DNA of 64,000 nucleotides. Origin: Candidatus Nanohaloarchaea archaeon. Its GTDB lineage: Archaea > Nanohalarchaeota > Nanosalinia > Nanosalinales > Nanosalinaceae. A program made the position numbers and the translations under genes. Below the pieces are notes generated by a model. The model did no database searches. It was not told where the DNA came from and worked only from the letters and a program-made list of their open reading frames with translations. The stretch's first letter is position 1. Every line of letters starts with the position of its first letter. Of this stretch, positions 11,473-50,958 are shown one piece after another. The stretch covers positions 32,001-96,000 of the forward strand of contig JBDGRK010000018.1 in assembly GCA_042218075.1 (NCBI GenBank), written 5' to 3'.

Positions 11473-12852
11473 TCAGAGATTCGGCCTCCAGACCGACGTG
11501 TTTTCCAGTAGTTCGATATCATTCCTGTAGAGTTCCCTGACATCTTCAAGACCGGCTGATCTCATCGCAATCCTTGGAATTCCAAGTCCCCAAGCCAATA
11601 CCGTAGCCTCGAATCCTAACATGGGTTTTACCACCTCAGGCCGGAACATGCCTGATCCGCCGAGACCTATCCATTCCTTTTCCTGGGAATCCCAGACCTG
11701 GACTTCCACGCTCATCTCGGTGTAGGGGTAATAGCTGGGGATAAGCCTGAATTGATCGTATCCCATCTTTTCAAAGAACTGGCTCAAATAGGCCTTAAGA
11801 TTCACGAAGTTTAGATCTTCTCCCACCACAATACCATCCGACTGGTAGAACTCAGCATTATGATAACGATCAATAGTTTCATTCCTGAAAACTCTTGAAG
11901 TAGTGAAGAACTTGGCCGGAAGATCTTTCTTCTCAAGTTCCGCAAGTTTCTGCGCCGAGACACCTGTAGTATGAGTCCTTAAAACATTTCTTGAAGCCTC
12001 CTTCTCCGACCAATCATATTCCCATCCAGAGCTTCCGGTCTCCCAGCCGTTCTCATGAGTTTGCTTTACTCTTTCAACGTAGTCTCCCTGCTCTGACAGA
12101 TCTGATTTCTCAGGCTTTTTCATAAAGAATGTGTCCTGCAACTCTCTTGCCGGGTGATCCTGCGGTATGTAGAGCGAATCAAAGCACCAGAAGCCCGGCT
12201 GAATGAAGGATCCTTCCATTTCTTTGAATCCCATTTCCCTCCATGTTTTGTTTGCATATTCTATTATCTGCTTGTAGAAGTGCTTCTTTCCCGTCCTGGG
12301 CGTCTTAGTCCTCGCCTCAACGTTGAAATCTTCTTCTATCTCATCCGGTTCTATCTCGTCTCCTCTCTCCGAAAGCAGAAGCTCTCTCCTGGTGGCTTTC
12401 TCAACCTCAACTAGCCCTCTTTCCTGAATCTCTTCATCAAATTCTCCTTCCTCCAGCCTCTGCCGGGTAACATCTTCAGCATCTTCACCTGGTTCAGTCA
12501 GGTAAACTTCTCCTTGGTCGACTTCCACCCAATTCTTCTCACGGGCCTTCCCGAGCGCAACGTCCAGTTCGAGATTTTCAAGCTCCGAGAGTTGTTTCTC
12601 GCCTCTGCTGACCCTCTCCACCAGCCTGTACTCCGGCGACCCTTCTTCAACTATCTCCTCTCCCTCACCTGTTAGTTCGTAGCCGATAACCTCTTCTTCC
12701 TCGACTTCTACAAGATCTTTCTCCTCCAGTTCTAAAGCCGCCCTGTTAACCATGCTCTGGTCGTATCCCATTGCTTCAAGGTCCTCTACCGTAAGTTCGG
12801 AGTGATCCTTGAGCTCTTCCAGGATCTGGATGGCCTGGGAGGAAAGCCTCAT
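11473..12852 (-). CDS. pheS: Phenylalanyl-tRNA synthetase alpha subunit
   Basis: PQDHPARELQDTF, LRTHTT, FRNETID, GMFRPE; ATG 12852 follows SD GGAGGTG. Confidence 0.96.
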   Translation of the reverse strand: MRLSSQAIQILEELKDHSELTVEDLEAMGYDQSMVNRAALELEEKDLVEVEEEEVIGYELTGEGEEIVEEGSPEYRLVERVSRGEKQLSELENLELDVALGKAREKNWVEVDQGEVYLTEPGEDAEDVTRQRLEEGEFDEEIQERGLVEVEKATRRELLLSERGDEIEPDEIEEDFNVEARTKTPRTGKKHFYKQIIEYANKTWREMGFKEMEGSFIQPGFWCFDSLYIPQDHPARELQDTFFMKKPEKSDLSEQGDYVERVKQTHENGWETGSSGWEYDWSEKEASRNVLRTHTTGVSAQKLAELEKKDLPAKFFTTSRVFRNETIDRYHNAEFYQSDGIVVGEDLNFVNLKAYLSQFFEKMGYDQFRLIPSYYPYTEMSVEVQVWDSQEKEWIGLGGSGMFRPEVVKPMLGFEATVLAWGLGIPRIAMRSAGLEDVRELYRNDIELLENTSVWRPNL

Positions 12853-12972
12853 GCGTGCACACCTCCGGAGTGAAGCTTTAATAACCCGGCCTGTATCCAA
12901 AAATCTATAGCTGAGTCCGAATAGAAATTTTCAATACTCGAAAAAACGTCCACCCTTCAAAGACAGACTCAT
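12849..12972 (-). promoter_or_regulatory. pheS leader: uORF MSLSLKGGRFFEY* with candidate +1 shift site CGT-TTT-TTC
   Basis: uORF 12972-12931; +1 frame open 30 codons to a TGA overlapping the pheS ATG; TATA-like CTTAAG at 12995-13000. Confidence 0.7.
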
Positions 12973-14674: not shown

Positions 14675-15778
14675 TTAAACCGAAAACTCCAGCTCTTCCT
14701 CCACGTACTGCTCGACTCTCGGCGCTTTTTCTTCTCTTTTCTGCTGGTGTTCATTCAGGAACTCCTCCATTTTCTGCCTGGCGATCTGCTTGAGTTCACC
14801 GGAAAGCATTTTCCCGCTCGAGTACTCCTGCTTGATTCTCTGGAGCTCTGAATCATCCTCTACCAGGTGGAATGTCAGAAGCTCGAAAACCATATCTTCA
14901 GATAGATCGGCTCCCTTTTTCCTGTGTTCTTCAACGGAATCCTGTCCCCCGGTCTTTGCTTCATCGATCTTCTGCTTCGCCTCCTCGATCGAATCCGTGA
15001 GCGCGATATAGCTCTTTGGGTCGCTGCTCGACATCTTGCCTCCCTGAAGGCCTCTCATGAACTTGTTGTAGGTGGAGGAAGGCTTCACGAAATCCTGCCT
15101 TCTGTACTTCGATGCGACCTCCCTTGTCAGCCTGATATGCGGATCCTGGTCCAGACCGACCGGAACAACTGTAGGTTTCGGACCTCCGTTCTCCGGGAAC
15201 TGTGGCCTCAGGATGTCAGCATACTGCGTGAGGGCCGAGGCTATCTTGCCGGGTTCCGCGTTTCCGTATGTTGCCTCCATTTCATTCTGCGTCAGGTGCT
15301 TGGCAAACATTTTGGATCTCGCAAGGTGGTCGTTTCCAGCCTGGCTCTGGAAGTAGAAATCCACGCTCTCAATATCAATCCCCAGAGCCGCATAATTCTT
15401 CAGGTACTGCTCCACCACCATCTCTCTCGCCTCTTCAAACGATATGTCTCGAGTATTATAGGATTCAATGTCCGCCGCCGCGATCGTGACCTCTGCACCC
15501 ATCTGCTGGTACATCTTGATCTGGTCGACCACGCACTTGTGGCCGAAGTGGAAGATTCCGGAGGGCATTATACCGGTGATCATCGCAAAGTCCTCTCCAT
15601 CCTCTTTCGCATCGAGAAGCACATCCAGGTCCCGGTGGCCGAAGACAATATTCCTCCTGATGAACCTGTGGTCCGGCATCCGGTCCTCTACTTCCTCTAT
15701 AGGCTCGATACCAAACTTCTCCATCTTCTCTCGATAGTTTCCAATCTCAACATCTCCCCAAGGATCGATCTCAGGCAT
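14675..15778 (-). CDS. trpS: Tryptophanyl-tRNA synthetase
   Basis: TGIMPSGIFHFGH, VPVGLDQDPH, KMSSS. Confidence 0.96.
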   Translation of the reverse strand: MPEIDPWGDVEIGNYREKMEKFGIEPIEEVEDRMPDHRFIRRNIVFGHRDLDVLLDAKEDGEDFAMITGIMPSGIFHFGHKCVVDQIKMYQQMGAEVTIAAADIESYNTRDISFEEAREMVVEQYLKNYAALGIDIESVDFYFQSQAGNDHLARSKMFAKHLTQNEMEATYGNAEPGKIASALTQYADILRPQFPENGGPKPTVVPVGLDQDPHIRLTREVASKYRRQDFVKPSSTYNKFMRGLQGGKMSSSDPKSYIALTDSIEEAKQKIDEAKTGGQDSVEEHRKKGADLSEDMVFELLTFHLVEDDSELQRIKQEYSSGKMLSGELKQIARQKMEEFLNEHQQKREEKAPRVEQYVEEELEFSV

Positions 15779-15782
15779 TTTG

Positions 15783-16880
15783 TCAACCTCTTACTTCGAT
15801 TTTCTTCTCTGTAAACTTTTCAAGCTTCTTATGATTGATTTTTGACTCAAATTCTGGATTTGAAGGTATCTCGATATGGCCATTCTTCATCTCTGGCTTA
15901 TCCATAATAGTTTCTCTGAAGTATCTCGACTGCGGAGCTATATCCGAAGGATGTGCAACCTGGCTCATGCTTGCAGCAGCTAATTGGTACATGGCGCCGA
16001 TACCTGATTCAACCAAGCCCCCTATCCATAGATCAATATCTTTCTCTTCGCATATGGAGTTTATCTCCTTCGAGGCTTGAATGCCTCCTACTCTCTGAGG
16101 CTTCAGATTGATTATACTACAGGCATCAAGCTTAGAAGCTCTTCTTACATCCTCAGGACTTCTTATACTTTCATCCAGACAGATAGGAGTATCTAAATCC
16201 TGAGAAAGAATGGAGTGATTCACGATATCTCTGTGGCCGAGAGGCTGTTCAATCATCTGAAGATTAAACTCGTCAAATTTCTGAATCCTCTCTCTATCTT
16301 CAAGATTGTAGTTCGAGTTCGCATCCACCATCAGATCATAGTCAGGAAATTCGTCCCTCACAGCTTTGACATACTTGACATCGTTACCAGACCTGATTTT
16401 TATTTTAGCCCTAGAATACCCCTTTTTCCTGTATTTTCGAACCTTATCAACGAGTTGTTCAGGATTTTCCTGTATTCCTATACTTACACCACATTCAGCT
16501 CTTTCTTCCTCTCCTTCAAACAGTTCAGAGAGATTTTTCTCTTCCTCGATCATTTTCCTGTTATGAAGAAGCATTTCACCTGCAGACTTAGCCATCAGAT
16601 TGCCTTTATACCCGGAAATTGATTCTCGATATTCCTCTATAGATTCAGCATTTCTTATAGCAGGTATAGCGAATCTTTCCATAAACTCAATTACAGCTTC
16701 CGTATATTCATGGTTATAGAGAGGAGCGAACTGAGCAGAAGCCTCACCATAGTAAAATCTCTCATCGTCAAAACACATCAAAATCACTACTTCTCTGTTC
16801 CTAATCTCTCCAAAACCAGTCTCAAAAGGATTCTTCAAGGGAAGCTGGACCTTTCTAATCTCGAATTTCTCAAAATCCAT
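15783..16880 (-). CDS. OSBS/N-succinylamino acid racemase (enolase superfamily)
   Basis: PFETGFG, KIK, DANS, EQPL, LDES, NLKPQRVGG. Confidence 0.85.
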   Translation of the reverse strand: MDFEKFEIRKVQLPLKNPFETGFGEIRNREVVILMCFDDERFYYGEASAQFAPLYNHEYTEAVIEFMERFAIPAIRNAESIEEYRESISGYKGNLMAKSAGEMLLHNRKMIEEEKNLSELFEGEEERAECGVSIGIQENPEQLVDKVRKYRKKGYSRAKIKIRSGNDVKYVKAVRDEFPDYDLMVDANSNYNLEDRERIQKFDEFNLQMIEQPLGHRDIVNHSILSQDLDTPICLDESIRSPEDVRRASKLDACSIINLKPQRVGGIQASKEINSICEEKDIDLWIGGLVESGIGAMYQLAAASMSQVAHPSDIAPQSRYFRETIMDKPEMKNGHIEIPSNPEFESKINHKKLEKFTEKKIEVRG

Positions 16881-17931
16881 CAGAGACCTCCTCCAAGAAG
16901 GTTTGCAAGATTTTACAGTACTGTTCCATACTCTCTATCTCAACGTATTCATTCTCGCCGTGGAGATCGTATCCTTCAGGGCCGAAACAGACCGCAGGTA
17001 TTCCTCTCTCCGTGAAGAACCTCATGTCACTGGCAAAGTTTTCTCTTCTGAAACCTGCTTGACCTGAAACCTCTTCAGCAGAGCTCCTCAGACCCTGTAC
17101 AAAGACATTATCTTCATCCGCCTCCATCATCGGAGCTTCTTTCAGGATCTCTGTATCAATTCCTTCTATACCTTCAATGTCCTCCAATACCTGATCTCTC
17201 GGATATTGATTTGAGAAACGTATATCGAGCTGTACAGACGCCTTATTCGGAATTTTGTTTACAGGACCTTCTGAAGAAATTTTTCCAAGGTTGATAGTGG
17301 TTGAAAAATTTTTTTCGTGGTCGAAGTTTTCCCTGATTTCCTGGTATTTTTCCAAAAGTTTTTCTGCCGCGTTTTCACCTTTCTCCGGTTTTGATGAGTG
17401 CGCTGATTTTCCTTCAGTCGAGATTTCCAGCTGTAGCACTCCCTTCTGCCTGGTTACTATGGAGGGAAAGCTTCCTGAATCATCAGGCTCACCGGATACA
17501 ACGAACTCGGGCTCGAGATCGGCCTCATCGATCACATAGCCTGTGCCGTTAAATCCTCCTCTCTCCTCATCTGAGGTCAAGAGAAGTGCGACATCTTCAT
17601 CCTCTAACCCCTCCAAAACTTTCATCATGCAGGCCACGCCCGACTTCATGTCAGCAGCACCTCTCCCATAGATTCTGCCGTTTTCTACCTCTGGTTCGAA
17701 AATTTCGTCTTCTGCTCCGATCACATCAAGGTGGCCATGAAGAAGTATCCGGGGGTTTTCACCCCTTGAGATCAGAACAGATTTCTCATCATTTTTCTCG
17801 AATCGCTGAAAATCTAGCCCGGAATCAAGCTGTCCTTCTATGTAGTTCAGACAGTTTCCGAGTTCCTGAGCGTTTCCTTCAACGGTTTTGAACCGGATAA
17901 GATCTTTCGTGGTTTCCTCAACGGTTTTCAT
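16870..17931 (-). CDS. M20 metallo-amidohydrolase (ArgE/DapE family)
   Basis: HGHLDV, YGRGAADMK, DEE, GEP, C-terminal HGENE. Confidence 0.9.
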   Translation of the reverse strand: MKTVEETTKDLIRFKTVEGNAQELGNCLNYIEGQLDSGLDFQRFEKNDEKSVLISRGENPRILLHGHLDVIGAEDEIFEPEVENGRIYGRGAADMKSGVACMMKVLEGLEDEDVALLLTSDEERGGFNGTGYVIDEADLEPEFVVSGEPDDSGSFPSIVTRQKGVLQLEISTEGKSAHSSKPEKGENAAEKLLEKYQEIRENFDHEKNFSTTINLGKISSEGPVNKIPNKASVQLDIRFSNQYPRDQVLEDIEGIEGIDTEILKEAPMMEADEDNVFVQGLRSSAEEVSGQAGFRRENFASDMRFFTERGIPAVCFGPEGYDLHGENEYVEIESMEQYCKILQTFLEEVSDGF

Positions 17932-18705
17932 GCTACTCTCTCACCGTTTTCCCGGAACTCGTAGTCTGAGGCTCGGGCTGCTTTTGCTAGGCTTTGTGCA
18001 GCATCTACTTCGGAAACTTCTCCTGCCACTACTATTGCATCTCCATCTTCGAAGGACATATCTAGGCCTTCTTCTCCATACATGAATTCTTCAAATTTAT
18101 CGTTGGGAGGAACTTCCGAGTACATACCTCCGTCGTATATATCCGCGTAGGCTTCCCTCATTACTGCTCCATCCATTTCCTTGCTTGGATTAATCTCATT
18201 TCCCAAAGCCTGAATTTCCTCCATAATTTCATCGTCTTCTCTTTCAGGATGCGGGTAAAACTCGAAACAGTTGTCGGCGCACTGGACCATATCGGGATTC
18301 TGAGTCCTGTAACCTACCAATTCCTCTCCATCAGCCAACTCCATTACTCCCCTACTCAGCAGTGTGCTTCCTACACATCTGCCCTGTAAATGATCACTTA
18401 CGGCTAGTCCCTCCTCATAGATCGCATCAGCCTTCTTGGAGACACCTGAAAAGGCCACATACTCGCCGCTCTCATCCTTCGCAGTGATTAAGAGAGGAAC
18501 ACGCAGATGAGCCTCGGCATCCTCTTCAGTAGGAACACCTTCCTTGGAGAAAGCATCCTGCGCCACATCAACAAGCTGGGACTCAGCCTCAGGATTCTCA
18601 TCCAGAAAACTTTCAGGATTTTGATAAACCTCTATCTCAAGGCTGTTTCCAAAAGCGTCCACCCTTCGGGGCTTCCGCTGTACCGTAGTCTTCTTGTGCT
18701 TTCAT
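17928..18705 (-). CDS. GNAT-like acyltransferase, probably expressed via a +1 frameshift near 18652
   Basis: LAVSDHLQGRCVGSTLL acetyl-CoA motif; ATG 18705 frame (MKAQEDYGTAEAPKGGRFWKQP*) joins the main ORF by +1 at TTT-TGG; GTG 18662 is the alternative start. Confidence 0.65.
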
Positions 18706-18803: not shown

Positions 18804-18951
18804 TTAAAAGTTTAGATTCAGTCTTGGATCCAGAAAAATCTTGAGAACTAAATACCATGAGAAATTCTTGATGGAAGAAATTCGGACGTAACTACGACTG
18901 ATTAAATCAATAGATACAGCGGGTCCAAAAACATCCACCTTTCAGCCGCAT
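18804..18951 (-). promoter_or_regulatory. Upstream Trp leader: uORF MRLKGGCFWTRCIY* with shift motif TGT-TTT-TGG
   Basis: uORF 18951-18907 after TATA-like TTTTTAAG (18973-18980); +1 frame open 40 codons to TAA at 18804. Confidence 0.6.
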
Positions 18952-21733: not shown

Positions 21734-21814
21734 ATAAGGTAGGAAGAATCAAGATATATAATTGTTTTGATTTTCCAACACTGAACGTCCAGAAATATAC
21801 ACACAAGGGAAAAT

Positions 21815-22093
21815 ATGGACTCAGAGGAAAAGAAAATAGCCATTCTGGCGAAACTTGCGAGGAAGAAAAAGTTAGGCATGAACTACATCCCTAAAGAAAA
21901 GGCTTTCAGCAAGATTCCATCTCACGACCGCGGAAATCTTGACAGTATTCTCAAAGAAATGCGTAGAAACGGACTGATCGAATTTCACAAGAACCGGAAA
22001 TGTATTTCCATCAATCCCGGAGCAGTGCCTGAAGTTATCGAACCAATTGGCGAGGAAGTTCCTGATTATATCATCGAGAGACTGGAGAGCTAG
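21815..22093 (+). CDS. Small hypothetical protein, possibly winged-helix
   Basis: 92-aa ORF divergent from the wHTH gene. Confidence 0.55.
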   Translation: MDSEEKKIAILAKLARKKKLGMNYIPKEKAFSKIPSHDRGNLDSILKEMRRNGLIEFHKNRKCISINPGAVPEVIEPIGEEVPDYIIERLES

Positions 22094-22135
22094 TCAAACC
22101 ATATTTAACTTCTTCCTCGTAAAACTTCAACACTA

Positions 22136-22283
22136 ATGAAAGGTGAATATTTTGGATTGTCGCAGGTTCCATCTGGAAGCTGCGTTGAGAAGCAGAATTC
22201 CTGCTTCGAATCGGCGATCAAGTAAAGTTTCTATAAAACCAGCTGTAGCTATAAAAACTTCTTCTCCGAGTGATTCTGCATGA
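22136..22283 (+). promoter_or_regulatory. glyS leader: 29-aa uORF MKGEYFG... with candidate +1 shift site TAT-TTT-GGA
   Basis: uORF 22136-22225; +1 frame open 42 codons to TGA 22281-22283 overlapping glyS ATG 22280; TATA-like ATTTAA at 22103-22108. Confidence 0.68.
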
Positions 22284-23989
22284 GGCTAGGCGAGAAAGTC
22301 ACCGAGCTTTCGAAGAGAAGAGGCTTCTATTTCCATACCTCCGGGGCTTATGGTGGAGTCGGAGGCTTCCAGACTTTCGGTCCAGAGGGAGCAGAACTGA
22401 AGAGAAATATTGAAGACTCCTGGAGAGATAAGTTCTCGCGCGAGCTTGGAAACAGGGAGATTGAAGCTCCGACAATCATGCAGGAAGACGTTTTCCGGGC
22501 TTCTGGCCACCTGGAGACTTTCGATGATATGATCATCGAGTGCCCGGAATGCGGAGAGTCCATCAGGGCAGACCACCTGGTCGAAGACAACACCGGTATA
22601 GAGGAAGCGGAGAGCCTTTCGACGGAGAGAATAGAAGAGCTGATCTCCGGGCACGACATCAAGTGCGGCTCATGCGGCAATGAACTCTCGGAAATCGAGG
22701 TGGAAGACTTCAACCTGATGTTCGAGACTTCTATCGGTCCGGGAGATTCACAGCCCGGATACCTGAGGCCAGAGACAGCGCAGGGCATCTTCGTTGAGTT
22801 TCCGCAGCTGAAAGAATACGAGAGAAACCAGCTCCCGTTTGGTATAACCCAGATAGGTAAGGCGTACAGGAACGAGATATCTCCGAGGAAAGGGCTTGTC
22901 AGGGTCAGGGAGCTGACTCAGGCAGAACTGGAAAAGTTCATCGATCCGGTGGAGGATGAACCGCCGCTTGAGGAGGTAGATGACGTGGAGCTTAAGCTCT
23001 ATCCGCGTGAAAGACAGGGAGAAGGAGAACAGGATTACCTCAGGCTCACCGTTAGAGAGGCAGTCGAAGAGGAAGTTGTTGAGTCTGAGTGGATAGCCTA
23101 CTACCTCGCTCACGCCAAGCTCTGGTTCGAGTCGATTGGAGTCGACATGGAAAGGTTCAGGTTCCGCCAGCACCTGGAGGACGAGCTCTCCCACTACTCG
23201 ACGGACTGCTGGGACGCTGAATCACAGGTGGATGGAGACTGGATAGAGATCGCGGGATTCTCATACAGGGGGTGCTACGACCTTTCAAAGCACGAAAAGT
23301 ATTCCCAAGATGACTTCAAAGTCTTCAAAGAATATGAAGAGCCGAGGGTCGAGAAAAGAGCGAAGGTGGATCCCGACATGGGCTGGCTTGGTCCAACTTA
23401 CGGAGACCACGCTTCAGAGATAAGTGAAGAGCTAGAGAGGATGGTGGAGGAAGAGCCAGAAGTCTTCGAGAGGAATGAAGAGCTGAGGCTGGAGATTGAC
23501 GGAAAGATGTTTGAAGTTCCGGTTGAGAAGACAGGCTTCAAGATAGAAGAAGTTAAGAAGAACGGCGAGCACATTCTGCCACACGTCGCGGAGCCTTCCT
23601 TCGGCATCGACAGGGCAGTCTACACTGTGCTTGGCCACGCCTACGACGAGGACGAGGTTGATGGAGAAGAACGGAAGGTGCTCAGGATGTCGAATGATGT
23701 TGTGCCGACGCAAGTAGCTGTCTTTCCACTAATGGACAAGCCGGAGCTGAGTGAAAAAGCCAGAGAGGTCGAGCAAAAGCTGAGGAATGCTGGATTCTCT
23801 GTGAAGTACGATGAGTCGGGAAGCATCGGAAAGCGCTACAGGAGGCAGGACGAGATCGGGACTCCTTTCTGCATCACCGTTGACTACGAAACCCTTGAAG
23901 AGGAGCCGGAGACAGTCACTGTAAGGTACAGGGATTCGACAGAGCAGGAAAGAATAGACATCAGTAAACTCAAAGAATACCTGGAGTAA
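22280..23989 (+). CDS. glyS: Glycyl-tRNA synthetase (alpha2 type)
   Basis: YLRPETAQGIF, YRNEISPR, EPSFGIDR, RYRRQDEIGTP. Confidence 0.96.
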   Translation: MRLGEKVTELSKRRGFYFHTSGAYGGVGGFQTFGPEGAELKRNIEDSWRDKFSRELGNREIEAPTIMQEDVFRASGHLETFDDMIIECPECGESIRADHLVEDNTGIEEAESLSTERIEELISGHDIKCGSCGNELSEIEVEDFNLMFETSIGPGDSQPGYLRPETAQGIFVEFPQLKEYERNQLPFGITQIGKAYRNEISPRKGLVRVRELTQAELEKFIDPVEDEPPLEEVDDVELKLYPRERQGEGEQDYLRLTVREAVEEEVVESEWIAYYLAHAKLWFESIGVDMERFRFRQHLEDELSHYSTDCWDAESQVDGDWIEIAGFSYRGCYDLSKHEKYSQDDFKVFKEYEEPRVEKRAKVDPDMGWLGPTYGDHASEISEELERMVEEEPEVFERNEELRLEIDGKMFEVPVEKTGFKIEEVKKNGEHILPHVAEPSFGIDRAVYTVLGHAYDEDEVDGEERKVLRMSNDVVPTQVAVFPLMDKPELSEKAREVEQKLRNAGFSVKYDESGSIGKRYRRQDEIGTPFCITVDYETLEEEPETVTVRYRDSTEQERIDISKLKEYLE

Positions 23990-47172: not shown

Positions 47173-50100
47173 ATGTCAGACGAGCTTGACGCCATTAAAG
47201 AGGTAATCAACGATCCCGAACACATCCGAAATATTGCTATCGCCGCTCATATAGACCACGGCAAATGCGTATCTCCGGACCAGCGGATCGCGCTTTCCGG
47301 CGGAAAACAGGTAAAAGCGGAAGAACTTTTTGAAGAATTCAGCGATAAAGGTGAAATTGTATCGAAAGGAGAAGAGACACAGATAAAGGTAGATTCTGGA
47401 GATGTTAGGGTCAAATCTCTCGATAAGAGAACGGGAGAAGTTGTAGACGGCGAAGTAACTGATCTGTGGAAGATGGAGAATAAAGACTCGATCTATAGAG
47501 TAGAACTTGAAGATGGAAAAAAAGTTGAGACAACTCCGGAACACGAATTTCTAACTCTAAGGCAGAATGGAAGCTTTGACTTCGTGGAGGCGAGAAACCT
47601 ATCTGAAAACCACACAGTAGTGGGTTCAAGGCTTCTGGAGGCCGATTCGCTAAGCGAGTCTGAACTGAAAGTGGAAATACTTGAAAGACTTTCAGAGGAC
47701 GCCAATTACTATATCAGGCTTGAAGAAGAGTTTGCGGAAAAGCTACAGTCTGATATGAAGGAATTAGGGATGGAAAAAACATATGAACAGATTAGACCTG
47801 TTCTCGAGTTCGAATCTTTCAGGCATTGCAGCTGGAGGGGAGAGTACAGGCTGAAGACAGTTCTACAACTTGCGGAAAAGTTCTCCAGTAAAGCAGAACT
47901 CTACGATAGTATTGAAACAGTTAATAGGAGAGGAACAGATAGCAAGGGAGTTCAGTCTTCGATCGAGGTAGAACTTCCAGACGATCTCTCCGGACTTTTC
48001 TACCTTGCAGGCATGTTCTTCGGAGACGGAGACCTTGAAGGGAACATTACTAATGACAACGAAGAGATCCAAAAGATTGTAGGGCGGAAGGCAGCAGATC
48101 TTGGGCTTGAACCTATTGCAAGAGAGTTTGAAGAAAGAGCTACAAGAATTGAGATAGGAGGAAAGACTCTCAGGAGAATTCTTGAAGATCTATTTGACTA
48201 TCCTGAAGAAGATAAATCAGCGAGCATCAAAATTTCAGATCTTGTATTCCGGTCGCCTGAAAGATACATTAGCGAGTTCATCAGGGGCTACATGGACGCG
48301 GACGGGACTGTAGAAGATTCCAGATCAGCGGTATCCGTAGGTTCAAAGAGCCTTAAAATGCTGGAAGACCTGCAGTTATTGCTCCAGAGGTTCGATATCG
48401 CTTCAAAGCTTAACAGGGAGAATAAAACCCTATACATCTCGGGAAGTCTATCTCTTGAGAACTACCTTGAGATCGGTTTCGAGCACCCGGTTAAACAGCA
48501 GAAGCTGGAGGAACTGGTTAAAGAAGCGGAAAGCTCAAAGGCTGATAGAGTTCCTATTGATGGAGAAGAGGTCAGAGAAGTAAGGAAGAAAGCCGAACTA
48601 ACGCAGAGCGATATGATCACCTCTTACACTAATTATGAGAACAATCATGTAGGTCTTACCAAGAAATCACTCAGAAAAATAACGGAGAGATTCGAGGAAG
48701 AAGGATTTGAAGGGCAGAAACTCAGAAGGCTGGAAAGACTCGCAGTCGCAGATACAACCTTCTCAAAGGTCAAAAATATAGAGAAGATGGAGAATACAGA
48801 GACTGTCTACGACTTCACGGTAGAGGATCACCACAACTTCATATCGGAGGGAATAGTTGTACATAACACTACTCTCACAGATAATTTACTGGCCAGAGCA
48901 GGCATGATTTCGGACAAGCTGGCAGGAGATCAAAGATTCATGGACTTCGACGACCAGGAGGCTGAGAGAGGGATCACGATCTACTCCGCCAACATCTCGA
49001 TGGTCCACGAGTTTGACGGCGACGATTACCTGATCAACCTTATCGACACTCCAGGCCACGTCGACTTCGGGGGAGACGTTACAAGAGCGATGAGGGCTGT
49101 CGACGGCGTTGTTGTCCTGGTTGACGCGGTTGATGGTGTCATGCCCCAGACCGAGACAGTCATGAAGCAGGCGCTGCAGGAAGGCGTCAAGCCTGTACTG
49201 TTCATCAACAAGGTAGACCGCCTGATAGAAGAGATGCAGCTGACTCCGGAGGAGATGCAGGAGCGGTTCAAGAAGATAATCAGAGAGGTCAACACCGCTC
49301 TTAGAAAGTATGCGGACGACGAGACCGCGGAGAACTGGAAGATGAAGGTGGATGATGGAACTGTAGCGTTTGGATCAGCGCTGATGAACTGGGCGATCTC
49401 GGTTCCATTTATGAAGGAGACCGGCATCTCGTTCGGGGAAATAATCGAAAGAGTAAACGAAGACGATCACGAAGGACTCGCGGAGGATGCACCGATCGAG
49501 GAAGTGGTGCTGGACATGGTTGTAAAGCACCTTATAGATCCCCATACCTCCGCGGAGTGGAGGATTCCAGCTGTATGGCCCGGCGACGTTGACTCGGAAG
49601 TAGGAAAGGACATGATGCAGCACGACCAGGATGGAAGACTGGTAGGTGTCGTAACGAATGTTGAAGACGATGAGCACGCGGGAACTATAGCCACCGCGAG
49701 ACTCTTTTCAGGAACAGTGAACGAGGGAGACGAGCTCTACGGTATAGGATCGCAGAAGACAGAGCGCGCCCAGCAGGTTGGAATTTACTCAGGACCCAGA
49801 AAGCTCACAGTTGACTCCGTTCCATGCGGAAATATCGCCGCGATCACCGGTCCTGACTTCTCAACGGGAGAGACTTTCATTCTGGATGGAGAGGAGGAGA
49901 TCCAGCCGTTCGAGCAGATCGAGCACGTCTTCGAGCCTGTTGTTACCAAGTCGATCGAGCCGAAGAGAACCTCCGATCTCCCCAAGCTTATCGAGGCGCT
50001 GAGGAAGCGCTCAAAGGAAGACAATACTATCGAAGTCGATATTGACGAGGAGACCGGCGAGACACTGGTCTCGGGACTCGGAGAACTCCACATAGAAGCC

Positions 50101-50958
50101 AAAGTTGAAAGACACCTGGAAGAGAAGGGAATCGATATTGAGGTTTCTGAACCCATCGTGGTATTCAGGGAAGGCATCGATGACTCCTCACCAGAGATGA
50201 TGGGCAAGTCGCCCAATCGCCACAACAAGCTGGAAATCTCGGTCGAGCCTCTGGATGAATCTGTAAGGAAGTTTTTGAAGGAGGATTTGCAGGAAGTTAA
50301 AATGGAGGCGGATGAAGACAGGGAGATTACGGATGCGATGATCGAGGCAGGGCTCGATAAGGAAGACGCGGAGAACGTGATGGATGTGTTTGAGGAGAAC
50401 CTGTTTATCAACGCCTCAAGAGGTATCAAGAACCTAAGAGAGATCAAAGAGTATCTTGTGGATGCGTTCCACGAGTTCTGCGAGGAAGGACCTCTCGCGG
50501 GAGAACCTGTGATTGGTCTAAAGGTAAAGCTTCACGACGCACAGCTCCACGAGGACGCAATTCATAGAGGTCCCGCACAGATGATACCCGCTACCAAAGA
50601 TGCGATGAAGAGAGGATTCCTAGAGGCGACTCCAAGACTGATCGAGCCTAAACAGGTGCTCAGGATCGACACACCTAGCGATACAATGGGAGATGCGATG
50701 ACCGAAGTCTCCAACAGAAGAGGAGACGTAATAAACATGGAGGAAGAGGGCGACTCATCTGTGATCAAATGCAAATTACCCGTAGAAGAGCTTTTCGGGT
50801 TTGAAGCAGATCTAAAGGGAGCCACGAATGGAAAGGGGTTCTTCTCGCTGATCGACCTGATCTTCGAGCCGCTGCCTAGAAACCTCCAGGAGGAGAAGAT
50901 CATGGATATTAGAGAGCGGAAGGGAATGAAGCAAGAGATGCCAAGCGTGGAGGAGTAG
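47173..50958 (+). CDS. fus: Elongation factor EF-2 containing an intein
   Basis: AHIDHGK|TT, ERGITI, DTPGHVDF, diphthamide loop HEDAIHRG. Confidence 0.96.
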   Translation: MSDELDAIKEVINDPEHIRNIAIAAHIDHGKCVSPDQRIALSGGKQVKAEELFEEFSDKGEIVSKGEETQIKVDSGDVRVKSLDKRTGEVVDGEVTDLWKMENKDSIYRVELEDGKKVETTPEHEFLTLRQNGSFDFVEARNLSENHTVVGSRLLEADSLSESELKVEILERLSEDANYYIRLEEEFAEKLQSDMKELGMEKTYEQIRPVLEFESFRHCSWRGEYRLKTVLQLAEKFSSKAELYDSIETVNRRGTDSKGVQSSIEVELPDDLSGLFYLAGMFFGDGDLEGNITNDNEEIQKIVGRKAADLGLEPIAREFEERATRIEIGGKTLRRILEDLFDYPEEDKSASIKISDLVFRSPERYISEFIRGYMDADGTVEDSRSAVSVGSKSLKMLEDLQLLLQRFDIASKLNRENKTLYISGSLSLENYLEIGFEHPVKQQKLEELVKEAESSKADRVPIDGEEVREVRKKAELTQSDMITSYTNYENNHVGLTKKSLRKITERFEEEGFEGQKLRRLERLAVADTTFSKVKNIEKMENTETVYDFTVEDHHNFISEGIVVHNTTLTDNLLARAGMISDKLAGDQRFMDFDDQEAERGITIYSANISMVHEFDGDDYLINLIDTPGHVDFGGDVTRAMRAVDGVVVLVDAVDGVMPQTETVMKQALQEGVKPVLFINKVDRLIEEMQLTPEEMQERFKKIIREVNTALRKYADDETAENWKMKVDDGTVAFGSALMNWAISVPFMKETGISFGEIIERVNEDDHEGLAEDAPIEEVVLDMVVKHLIDPHTSAEWRIPAVWPGDVDSEVGKDMMQHDQDGRLVGVVTNVEDDEHAGTIATARLFSGTVNEGDELYGIGSQKTERAQQVGIYSGPRKLTVDSVPCGNIAAITGPDFSTGETFILDGEEEIQPFEQIEHVFEPVVTKSIEPKRTSDLPKLIEALRKRSKEDNTIEVDIDEETGETLVSGLGELHIEAKVERHLEEKGIDIEVSEPIVVFREGIDDSSPEMMGKSPNRHNKLEISVEPLDESVRKFLKEDLQEVKMEADEDREITDAMIEAGLDKEDAENVMDVFEENLFINASRGIKNLREIKEYLVDAFHEFCEEGPLAGEPVIGLKVKLHDAQLHEDAIHRGPAQMIPATKDAMKRGFLEATPRLIEPKQVLRIDTPSDTMGDAMTEVSNRRGDVINMEEEGDSSVIKCKLPVEELFGFEADLKGATNGKGFFSLIDLIFEPLPRNLQEEKIMDIRERKGMKQEMPSVEE
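47266..48867 (+). mobile_element. 534-aa intein with LAGLIDADG endonuclease in the EF-2 P-loop
   Basis: Starts Cys after GK, TTPEHEF block B, LAGMFFGDG and IRGYMDADG, ends VYDFTVEDHHNF...VHN before Thr. Confidence 0.95.

Follow-up and report, generated by a model that had tools for sequence, protein, structure and literature searches.

Why should a glycyl-tRNA synthetase gene be preceded by a short open reading frame (ORF) in which a ribosome-binding motif, a phenylalanine codon and a glycine codon stand in line, and from which a second, stop-free frame leads to the synthetase start? The question is raised by glyS of a Candidatus Nanohaloarchaea archaeon, whose genome was surveyed as 1.10 Mb in 40 contigs. 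The gene lies at 22280–23989 on the forward strand of the 64,000-nucleotide stretch analyzed here (the window; GenBank assembly GCA_042218075.1, contig JBDGRK010000018.1, positions 32,001–96,000) and encodes a 569-residue dimeric glycine–tRNA ligase of the archaeal/eukaryal type (TIGR00389, 631 bits; Pfam HGTP_anticodon and tRNA-synt_2b). The glyS leader belongs to a family of leaders that carry a codon for the amino acid of the downstream synthetase. Judging from sequence comparison, this family probably acts by a +1 frameshift followed by termination and reinitiation on the synthetase start.

The zero-frame leader ORF (22136–22225, forward strand) opens with ATG at 22136, comprises 29 codons (peptide MKGEYFGLSQVPSGSCVEKQNSCFESAIK) and ends with TAA at 22223–22225, 54 nucleotides (nt) before glyS. 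Inside it, AGGTGA (22141–22146), a Shine-Dalgarno (SD)-like element and part of the core RGGTGRA, is complementary to the 3' end of 16S rRNA, the gene of which, on contig C28, ends ...GGATCACCTCC. Four nt (ATAT) separate this element from TTT at 22151–22153, the proposed P-site (shift) codon; equivalently, GGTGAA (22142–22147) is followed by TAT and TTT. The next codon, GGA at 22154–22156, is the proposed glycine sensor ("specifier") codon and the candidate for a hungry codon in the A site. The +1-frame ORF (22155–22283, same strand) starts with GAT at 22155 and runs for 42 sense codons to TGA at 22281–22283; its last codons, GCA TGA (22278–22283), overlap the glyS ATG at 22280 as ATGA. Within it, a weak SD-like element, GTGA at 22270–22273 (GGTG in most relatives), lies 7–10 nt before the glyS ATG. 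The genome has a tRNA-Gly(UCC) gene, and TTT is its minor phenylalanine codon (33%).

An earlier sequence-only reading of this stretch had described the leader ORF, AGGTGA, TTT-GGA, the stop at 22225, the 42-codon +1 frame and its GCA TGA ending, and all of these elements and coordinates proved exact. The ending it reported as common with pheS is likewise there, as GCATGA at window positions 12854–12849 on the minus strand. Taken alone, the window leader is not beyond chance: the +1 frame stays open in 11% of mononucleotide shuffles (p = 0.11), and the ATGA overlap requires only that the second glyS codon begin with A. Only when relatives and other synthetase genes are compared does the glyS leader gain significance.

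A pattern search for the glyS Gly-TTT motif, which is single-copy in this genome, found 38 places in 37 of the 50 genomes of the family, compared with 12 places for the reversed control, and nearly all of them lie 72–165 nt upstream of glyS on the same strand (31 distinct genomes). De-duplication gave 31 tabulated leaders, to which two whose second codon differs (L005 and L006) were added later, for a set of 33 with the consensus ATG, zero or two extra codons, AAR GGT GRA YRY TTT GGR. When family loci with upstream sequence were instead picked by homology of the glyS protein alone, 15 of 20 had the leader. The expectation that relatives keep the glycine codon was borne out, the codon being GGA in 32 of the 33 leaders and GGG in the other. 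Of the 31 tabulated leaders, 30 open a short zero-frame ORF of 14–29 codons with an in-frame ATG, as do both later ones; for the thirty-first, L039, an in-frame ATG 18 nt upstream of AAA was read from the alignment by eye only. The zero-frame peptides (14–29 residues) have only M(xx)KG[GE][RCYH]FG in common, and their tails after KGG(R/C/Y)FG are unconserved. The cassette letters vary solely by transitions, and GGT and TTT are never swapped for synonymous codons, a result in part imposed by the search pattern; the constraint thus appears to act on the nucleotides.

The cassette recurs before other synthetase genes with a different codon after TTT or GTT. In this genome GGA precedes glyS, TTC pheS, ACC thrS, GTT valS, TAC tyrS, TCC serS and CCA proS, and TGG heads an operon that ends in trpS; a genome-wide search found an in-frame ATG and a short zero frame at these other cassettes as well. 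The pheS leader (12972–12931, minus strand) reads ATG AGT CTG TCT TTG AAG GGT GGA CGT TTT TTC GAG TAT TGA, which corresponds to the peptide MSLSLKGGRFFEY*; its sensor TTC occupies 12942–12940, and its +1 frame is open for 30 codons up to GCA TGA over the pheS ATG at 12852. Inspection of all pattern matches in five further genomes from three families (G020, G021, G031, G032 and G027) gave thrS five times, serS three times and cysS three times (TGT), together with tyrS, glyS, valS, pheS, leuS (CTA), trpS (TGG) and hisS (CAC). When every cassette of the upstream-ORF type with one of 11 synthetase types starting no more than 700 nt downstream was counted across the six genomes, the codon after TTT or GTT matched the downstream synthetase in 25 cases and failed to match in none. 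The synthetase names came from NCBIfam and are independent of the codon; four reference proteins came from cassette-bearing loci. Synonymous sensor codons differ among species (TCC/TCT, TAC/TAT, GTT/GTA and ACC/ACA), so it is the identity of the amino acid that is kept. The idea of a glycine codon at the shift site thus extends, beyond what the sequence-only reading could see, to a sensor codon that is cognate in 25 of 25 synthetase leaders, and we regard the existence of a cognate-codon leader family as near certain.

The +1 frame is conserved in a different manner. From the sensor codon to a point 13 nt short of the glyS ATG, the 31 leaders hold no stop in 956 +1-frame codons, compared with 84 in 928 codons of the zero frame and 42 in 953 codons of the +2 frame; the per-sequence chance of an open +1 frame is 0.05–0.53. 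In all 33 leaders this frame is open to the glyS start and ends within −13 to +12 nt of it. Conservation of the ATGA overlap, which the sequence-only reading had offered as a check, held in part: ATGA or GTGA, with the stop at +1, occurs in 17 of the 31 tabulated leaders and in L005, one of the two added, whereas the other tabulated leaders have their +1 stop at +5 (two), +10 (seven) or −6 to −13 (five). The end point is kept although indels in the spacer, the length of which is not always a multiple of three, alter its distance and frame. The +1-frame peptide is unconserved, and an AAAACC motif within the spacer is read in varying frames across relatives (18, 9 and 2), which argues that the openness and the end point of the frame are kept, and not a protein. 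At most other synthetase leaders too (pheS, thrS, proS, cysS, leuS and others) the +1 stop coincides with the synthetase start, and this includes long +1 ORFs of 99 codons at proS and 107 codons at cysS.

Two promoters are predicted at the locus. A TATA-like box, ATATTTAA, at 22101–22108 (P1, forward strand) lies 28–35 nt upstream of the leader ATG, and the corresponding hexamer in relatives starts at −31 to −33 from the leader ATG in short leaders or at −37/−38 in those with two extra codons, so that the leader ORF would begin at the transcript 5' end or no more than about 9 nt from it. Upstream of 551 first genes genome-wide, an A/T peak at −34 to −23 from the ATG is accompanied by a WW signal at −11/−10 and by no general SD peak, and this is the profile of archaeal TATA boxes for leaderless mRNAs. 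SD motifs are nevertheless in use: upstream of ATGs, GGTG is most frequent at −11, and in 38 of 184 internal genes it starts between −15 and −9. The second box, P2 (TATAAAAA, 22250–22257, forward strand), is at −30 to −23 from the glyS ATG and probably supplies glyS with a basal leaderless mRNA of its own, to judge from its position, which agrees with the profile of the 551 first genes. A TATA-like motif is found at −29 to −31 from glyS in 22 of the 31 relatives; the nine that lack it yet keep the leader, and in these glyS may depend on the leader transcript. The sequence-only reading had named TATAAAA-like boxes near 22232–22257, among which is P2. The first (TATAAAACC, 22232–22240, forward strand) is the window version of a conserved AAAACC(TTCTAG) motif, here at 22235–22240, which lies about 45–51 nt before the synthetase start at a near-fixed distance upstream of the P2 TATA box and is shared by this genome's thrS, tyrS and serS leaders. 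A factor that acts on P2 could bind there, or the motif could work in the RNA as an anti-SD-like element.

These promoters bring up the alternative that glyS is expressed from P2 alone, the upstream unit being an independent small gene (for a micropeptide or small RNA) or a relic. A P2 at canonical distance in 22 of 31 relatives, the lack of a leader in five of 20 family genomes and the separate TATA box of the upstream unit all accord with it. An independent gene, however, would not carry the codon of the downstream synthetase in 25 of 25 cases, nor would it hold a non-coding-looking +1 frame open to the start of its neighbor; the variable peptide tails and the lack of any Rfam family match speak against it as well. 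We judge this alternative very improbable. Since P2 is present and some relatives do without the leader, the leader can only add a regulated component to glyS expression.

Two further observations concern the region upstream of glyS. In L012 (genome G002, same genus), what appeared to be an inverted glyS cassette is actually a divergently transcribed Trp cassette (MRLKGGCFW), and it was rejected as a glyS leader; glyS itself retains the AAATCTTCTAG motif and the P2 TATA box and has no Gly leader, the Trp cassette lying divergently about 170–200 nt upstream. The leader can therefore be lost inside one genus. In L002, L003, L005, L006, L011, L017, L019, L021 and L022, a palindrome GTAATAC-N3-GTATTAC (or a permutation of it) stands beside the TTTTTAAG box upstream of the leader promoter. 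It is probably bound by a transcription factor within a divergent promoter region, and this window lacks it.

We then considered how the cassette is built. All 79 pooled cassettes have GGTGRA, three nt YRY, and TTT or GTT, a form imposed by the search pattern: the core letters were fixed in it, so that their invariance is not independent evidence, and only K was allowed at the first letter of the P-site codon. Letters left free are also biased, with A at −3 in 65 and A at −2 in 73 of the 79. The P-site codon is TTT in 68 cassettes and GTT in 11, and the choice follows the sensor: GTT stands in seven of the eight cassettes with a sensor starting with C, versus four of the 71 others (TTT in 67), so that UUU_C seems avoided. 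Only if re-pairing in the +1 frame plays a part would one expect the first base of the sensor to bear on the P-site codon in this way. Re-pairing on UUU_U would be perfect for the Phe, Trp, Tyr, Ser and Cys sensors, and UUU_Ynn is described as especially prone to +1 shifting in the part of a 2016 recoding review that bears on it (PMC5009743). Among the pattern matches, one TGA and one TAA follow TTT; neither belongs to the upstream-ORF type. Ordinary initiation at the TTG within TTT-GGA, with GGTGGA as its SD, was rejected as a general explanation, the other synthetase cassettes having no start codon there.

These features suggest a mechanism, which we set out for glyS. The P1 transcript would start a few nt before the short ORF, in which ATG and 0–14 codons lead to AAR GGT GRA YRY TTT and then to the cognate codon; we infer that the zero frame is translated. 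With charged tRNA-Gly plentiful, GGA would be decoded in frame and the ribosome would stop at 22223–22225, short of glyS. When Gly-tRNA is scarce, the ribosome would pause, UUU occupying its P site and nothing its A site, and pairing of the SD-like GGTGRA with the 16S 3' end, together with the shift-prone UUU/tRNA-Phe, would move it into the +1 frame. That frame, being free of stops, would carry it to a stop on or beside the glyS start, where it would reinitiate with the aid of the upstream GGTG/GTGA. The outcome would be homeostatic, less charged tRNA giving more synthetase. As far as sequence comparison reaches, the earlier interpretation of a leader coupled to glyS is supported, and the dependence of the P-site codon on the sensor, together with a leader that carries tandem Val, Ile and Leu cassettes (see below), fits a shift rather than a mere pause.

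Several points weigh against this mechanism. Re-pairing is imperfect for many sensors: UUU_G (Gly, Val) and UUU_A (Thr, Ile) would leave a wobble mismatch, no re-pairing is available to the GTT variants (GUU_C), and at glyS itself the movement of tRNA-Phe from UUU to UUG leaves a wobble G-G clash; the sequence-only reading had called this re-pairing imperfect and the shift perhaps weaker for it. In the six-base-pair SD-like match, RGGUGR, GGTG starts 9 nt before the P-site codon, whereas initiation most often uses −11, a spacing 2 nt longer; because −9 lies inside natural initiation spacings, the strain on the ribosome would be modest compared with prfB, the bacterial gene for release factor RF2. 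Glycine codons are not depleted in the +1 ORF (36 of 1052 codons, versus 25 of 1046 and 37 of 1049 in the other frames). The family genomes in which glyS, picked by homology, has no leader indicate that it is dispensable and that P2 alone can suffice, and the canonical leaderless distance of P2 in the window makes it very probable that glyS has its own promoter too. In this genome there is no cassette at cysS, hisS, two class-Ia paralogues or the archaeal-type proS; the survey covered the synthetase genes that were located, which do not include those for Met, Arg, Glu, Asp, Asn, Lys and Ala. A look-up of RNA sequencing runs for window positions 21800–23000 listed none. Finally, a GTG is found in the +1 frame of every cassette examined, and the glyS cassettes also have a TTG, so that the +1 frame might be entered by independent initiation.

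The last point leads to a second type of sensor, in which a paused ribosome, without any frameshift, remodels the leader RNA, for example by preventing a hairpin, and thereby exposes the start or alters the fate of the transcript, the +1 ORF being entered at GTG or TTG. The window leader can form two hairpins: hairpin 1 (22161–22184; CGCAG/CTGCG enclosing a TTCC/GGAA stem), which closely follows the sensor codon, and hairpin 2 (22189–22207; GAAGCAG/CTGCTTC), both on the forward strand. In 14 relatives with short-type leaders the equivalent of hairpin 1 starts at the GG of the sensor codon, is 97.9% paired and has 12 compensatory cells, a level that none of 500 shuffles reached; in L013, a covarying GAAACAC/GTGTTTC was read by eye at the place of hairpin 2. 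A hairpin that begins at the sensor codon would already be melted with UUU in the P site, so that the frameshift mechanism does not account for it, which is a further difficulty; the hairpin may keep ribosomes from initiating within the cassette or make them advance towards it more slowly. The cognate-codon rule and a covarying hairpin abutting the sensor codon would fit any stalling sensor, and the glyS TTG, 6 nt after GGTG, has normal start spacing. In mycobacteria, leaderless short ORFs that contain cognate codons (polycysteine ORFs) are reported to serve as attenuators (bioRxiv 10.1101/834739).

Set against this, a stalled ribosome would cover the GTG 9 nt upstream, giving the wrong regulatory sign; this GTG lacks a separate SD and is about 8 nt away from the 5' AUG. 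TTG is missing from the non-Gly cassettes (TTT-ACC, TTT-TCC and others), which lowers the standing of initiation as a rival; it keeps some probability, GTG being in the +1 frame of all cassettes, none having been found without it. Across the 14 leaders RNAalifold returned a single covarying hairpin and no competing or mutually exclusive helix with covariation. A long-range pairing of UGGAYGUUUU with the P2-region AAAAAUUUCCA, seen in some folds and in the RNAalifold consensus, shows no compensatory change and was not used. Nor would stalling alone account for a +1 frame that is open exactly from cassette to start, or for the link between the P-site codon and the first base of the sensor. We consider a stalling sensor of this kind unlikely, yet clearly less so than expression from P2 alone.

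A third alternative dispenses with translation: as in T-box RNAs, uncharged tRNA would read the codon directly on the leader RNA. The specifier codon does match the synthetase as in T-boxes, and UGGA occurs twice in the cassette, although only 9 nt from the codon. In the 64-kb window, however, only tRNAs pass the Rfam gathering score, and a relaxed search (E ≤ 10) of 22050–22330 gave chance-level hits only, a CnfY thermometer (E = 0.84) and BtsR1 (E = 5), and no T-box. The whole window leader folds no better than shuffled sequences (z = −0.63) and is far too short and unstructured for a Stem I and an antiterminator. Moreover, the in-frame ATG and short ORF are always present, and the open +1 frame would have no role. 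We find this explanation the least credible of those considered.

Cassettes are also found outside single synthetase genes. On the minus strand of the window, two Trp cassettes (TGG) in series, at 18951–18907 and 18705–18637, head an operon of an unknown 244-residue ORF (17928–18662), an M20 ArgE/DapE-type deacylase (16870–17931), an OSBS/N-acylamino-acid-racemase-like gene (15783–16880) and trpS (14675–15778). From the second of these cassettes the +1 frame runs for 241 codons straight into the ORF at 17928–18662, a prfB-like fusion and not a coupling. One leader ORF contains three tandem cassettes, GTG, ATC and CTG for Val, Ile and Leu, in one zero frame, and all three open the same +1 ORF, before unknown ORFs.

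This leader ORF and other cassettes before non-synthetase genes were seen on contig C36 (L064 and L065) and in the relatives L068, L073 and L086. An ATC cassette precedes an ilvA-like threonine ammonia-lyase gene, a GTT-CTG cassette precedes an unknown 255-residue ORF, and relatives carry Val+Leu and Ile+Leu tandem cassettes. Contig C40 bears two ProRS genes, both on the minus strand: a short, bacterial-type one (TIGR00409, 11316–12548), behind a Pro cassette (GTT-CCA) with a 99-codon +1 ORF, and an archaeal-type one (about 66508–67647), with an ordinary leaderless-looking promoter and no cassette.

To place the cassette within the phylum, the pattern RGGTGRAYRYKTT was compared with its own reversed control in a sample of 70 genomes. 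Matches far exceed the control in family f1 (50 genomes; 379 versus 36), in family f4 (63 versus 15) and in genus g27 of family f3 (16 versus 0), whereas the other eight genomes of f3 gave 10 matches against 16 in the control, and families f2 and f5 together none against 4. In a search of 185,579 species genomes with ATGAARGGTGGAYGYTTT, the 80 matches listed include 23 titled Nanohaloarchaea, Nanosalina, Nanohalobium or Asbonarchae*, six titled "uncultured archaeon" and 51 single matches in assorted bacteria; the bacterial singletons are in line with chance, for which we estimate about 140 expected matches. The cassette family spans this archaeal phylum, and the titled archaeal records that hold the cassette are Nanohaloarchaeota.

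The tRNA that would shift is tRNA-Phe, and a domain for wyosine synthesis was seen only in lineages without cassette enrichment. Among the cassette-rich lineages (f1, f4 and genus g27; 60 genomes) not one genome yielded the Wyosine_form domain (Taw1/TYW1), which was detected in five of the 10 other genomes of the phylum, all in genus g23 and family f5, where the cassette is not enriched; as a positive control, the search found the domain in three control archaea. This suggests that tRNA-Phe lacks wyosine in the cassette-rich lineages, and loss of wyosine may have made the switch possible. The lineages are few and related, and the link is therefore a lead, not a test.

Two unrelated features of the genome are recorded here. 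With its intron option ARAGORN predicts 37 tRNA genes, compared with 12 otherwise, which suggests that most tRNA genes of this genome contain introns. The aEF-2 ORF at 47173–50958 of the window (forward strand, 1261 residues) matches EF-2 only over residues 560–1255, with matches to intein N-terminal and other intein-host-like sequences in the first 560; the gene probably carries an intein.

How does the leader family relate to known regulatory systems? One that is close in outline is the bacterial prfB frameshift, as treated in the relevant part of the 2016 review (PMC5009743), in which an SD, 3 nt, a shift codon and a slowly decoded A-site codon give a +1 shift when RF2 is short. Both have a short zero-frame ORF, an internal SD-like element 3 nt before the shift codon and a highly conserved cassette, and in both, decoding in the A site would depend on the product of the regulated gene, so that shortage would lead to a +1 shift and more synthesis. 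They differ in that the A site holds no in-frame UGA stop but a sense codon, decoded by the very tRNA on which the enzyme acts; UUU or GUU takes the place of CUU as shift codon; the glyS +1 frame is a spacer ORF ending on the gene start, whose output would need reinitiation, with direct fusion only at the second Trp cassette; and the system is archaeal, with one cassette design reused with at least 11 codons.

Leader-peptide attenuation, as in E. coli pheST with pheM, in the trp and his operons and in the mycobacterial ORFs cited above, offers a second comparison. The leaders studied here resemble such attenuators in having a short 5' ORF, predicted to be translated, in which cognate codons would report the supply of charged tRNA. 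Unlike them, they have a single sensor codon in a fixed cassette in place of a codon run, no terminator/antiterminator pair was found in them, and they have a conserved open +1 frame that ends on the downstream start; in the window, no stretch of at least five T separates the leader from glyS. T-box riboswitches of Gram-positive bacteria bind uncharged tRNA directly by means of a long structured RNA, without translation. As in a T-box regulon, many synthetase genes share one leader design in which a single specifier codon varies, but the cassette leader is short and has no Rfam match.

Shifts on UUU are themselves on record: a P-site UUU followed by a slowly decoded A-site codon gives +1 shifts, as at UCC_UUU_CGU of influenza PA-X, according to the section of the review concerned (PMC5009743). 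Unlike hungry-codon UUU_Ynn shifts and PA-X, which are incidental or a viral device, the shift proposed here would be harnessed as a sensor for synthetase genes. Termination-reinitiation at overlapping stop and start codons is established in haloarchaea, as reported in the portions of two studies that deal with it (PMC6728339, PMC10666635). The leaders resemble such ATGA pairs of archaea and bacteria, with the upstream stop overlapping or near the downstream start and an SD-like motif inside the upstream ORF, but here the upstream ORF can be reached through the leader's +1 frame alone, and its product is not a conserved protein. The leader family thus fits prfB, attenuators and T-boxes in part and is a member of none.

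Among archaeal frameshifts, the pertinent part of the 2016 review lists only those of viral tail chaperones and of Mg-chelatase (PMC5009743). No description of leaders of this kind was found in the literature searched, which had subscription journals outside its coverage. We know of no mechanism described for the archaeal regulation of aminoacyl-tRNA synthetases. We lean, if only slightly, towards the broader view that the Nanohaloarchaeota run a translation-based counterpart of the T-box regulon, a modular +1 frameshift switch of the form RGGUGRA-YRY-UUU plus a specifier codon, which would serve at least 11 synthetase types as well as operons of amino-acid salvage and metabolism. If true, this would be the first known cis-regulatory system for synthetase genes in Archaea, as far as we are aware, and the first natural frameshifting on a hungry sense codon to be used as a sensor. 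It would merge leader-ORF sensing, the autoregulatory +1 shift of prfB and archaeal termination-reinitiation in one 15-nt cassette, with specificity set by one codon. The system would offer a testable case of amino-acid-specific programmed frameshifting on a sense codon and a compact design for synthetic switches that respond to codons or tRNAs. The cassette would also serve as a marker for amino-acid-linked genes, such as the uncharacterized ORFs that follow the Trp, Leu, Ile and Val/Ile/Leu cassettes. The wyosine link, if upheld, would tie the loss of a tRNA modification to the birth of a regulatory system.

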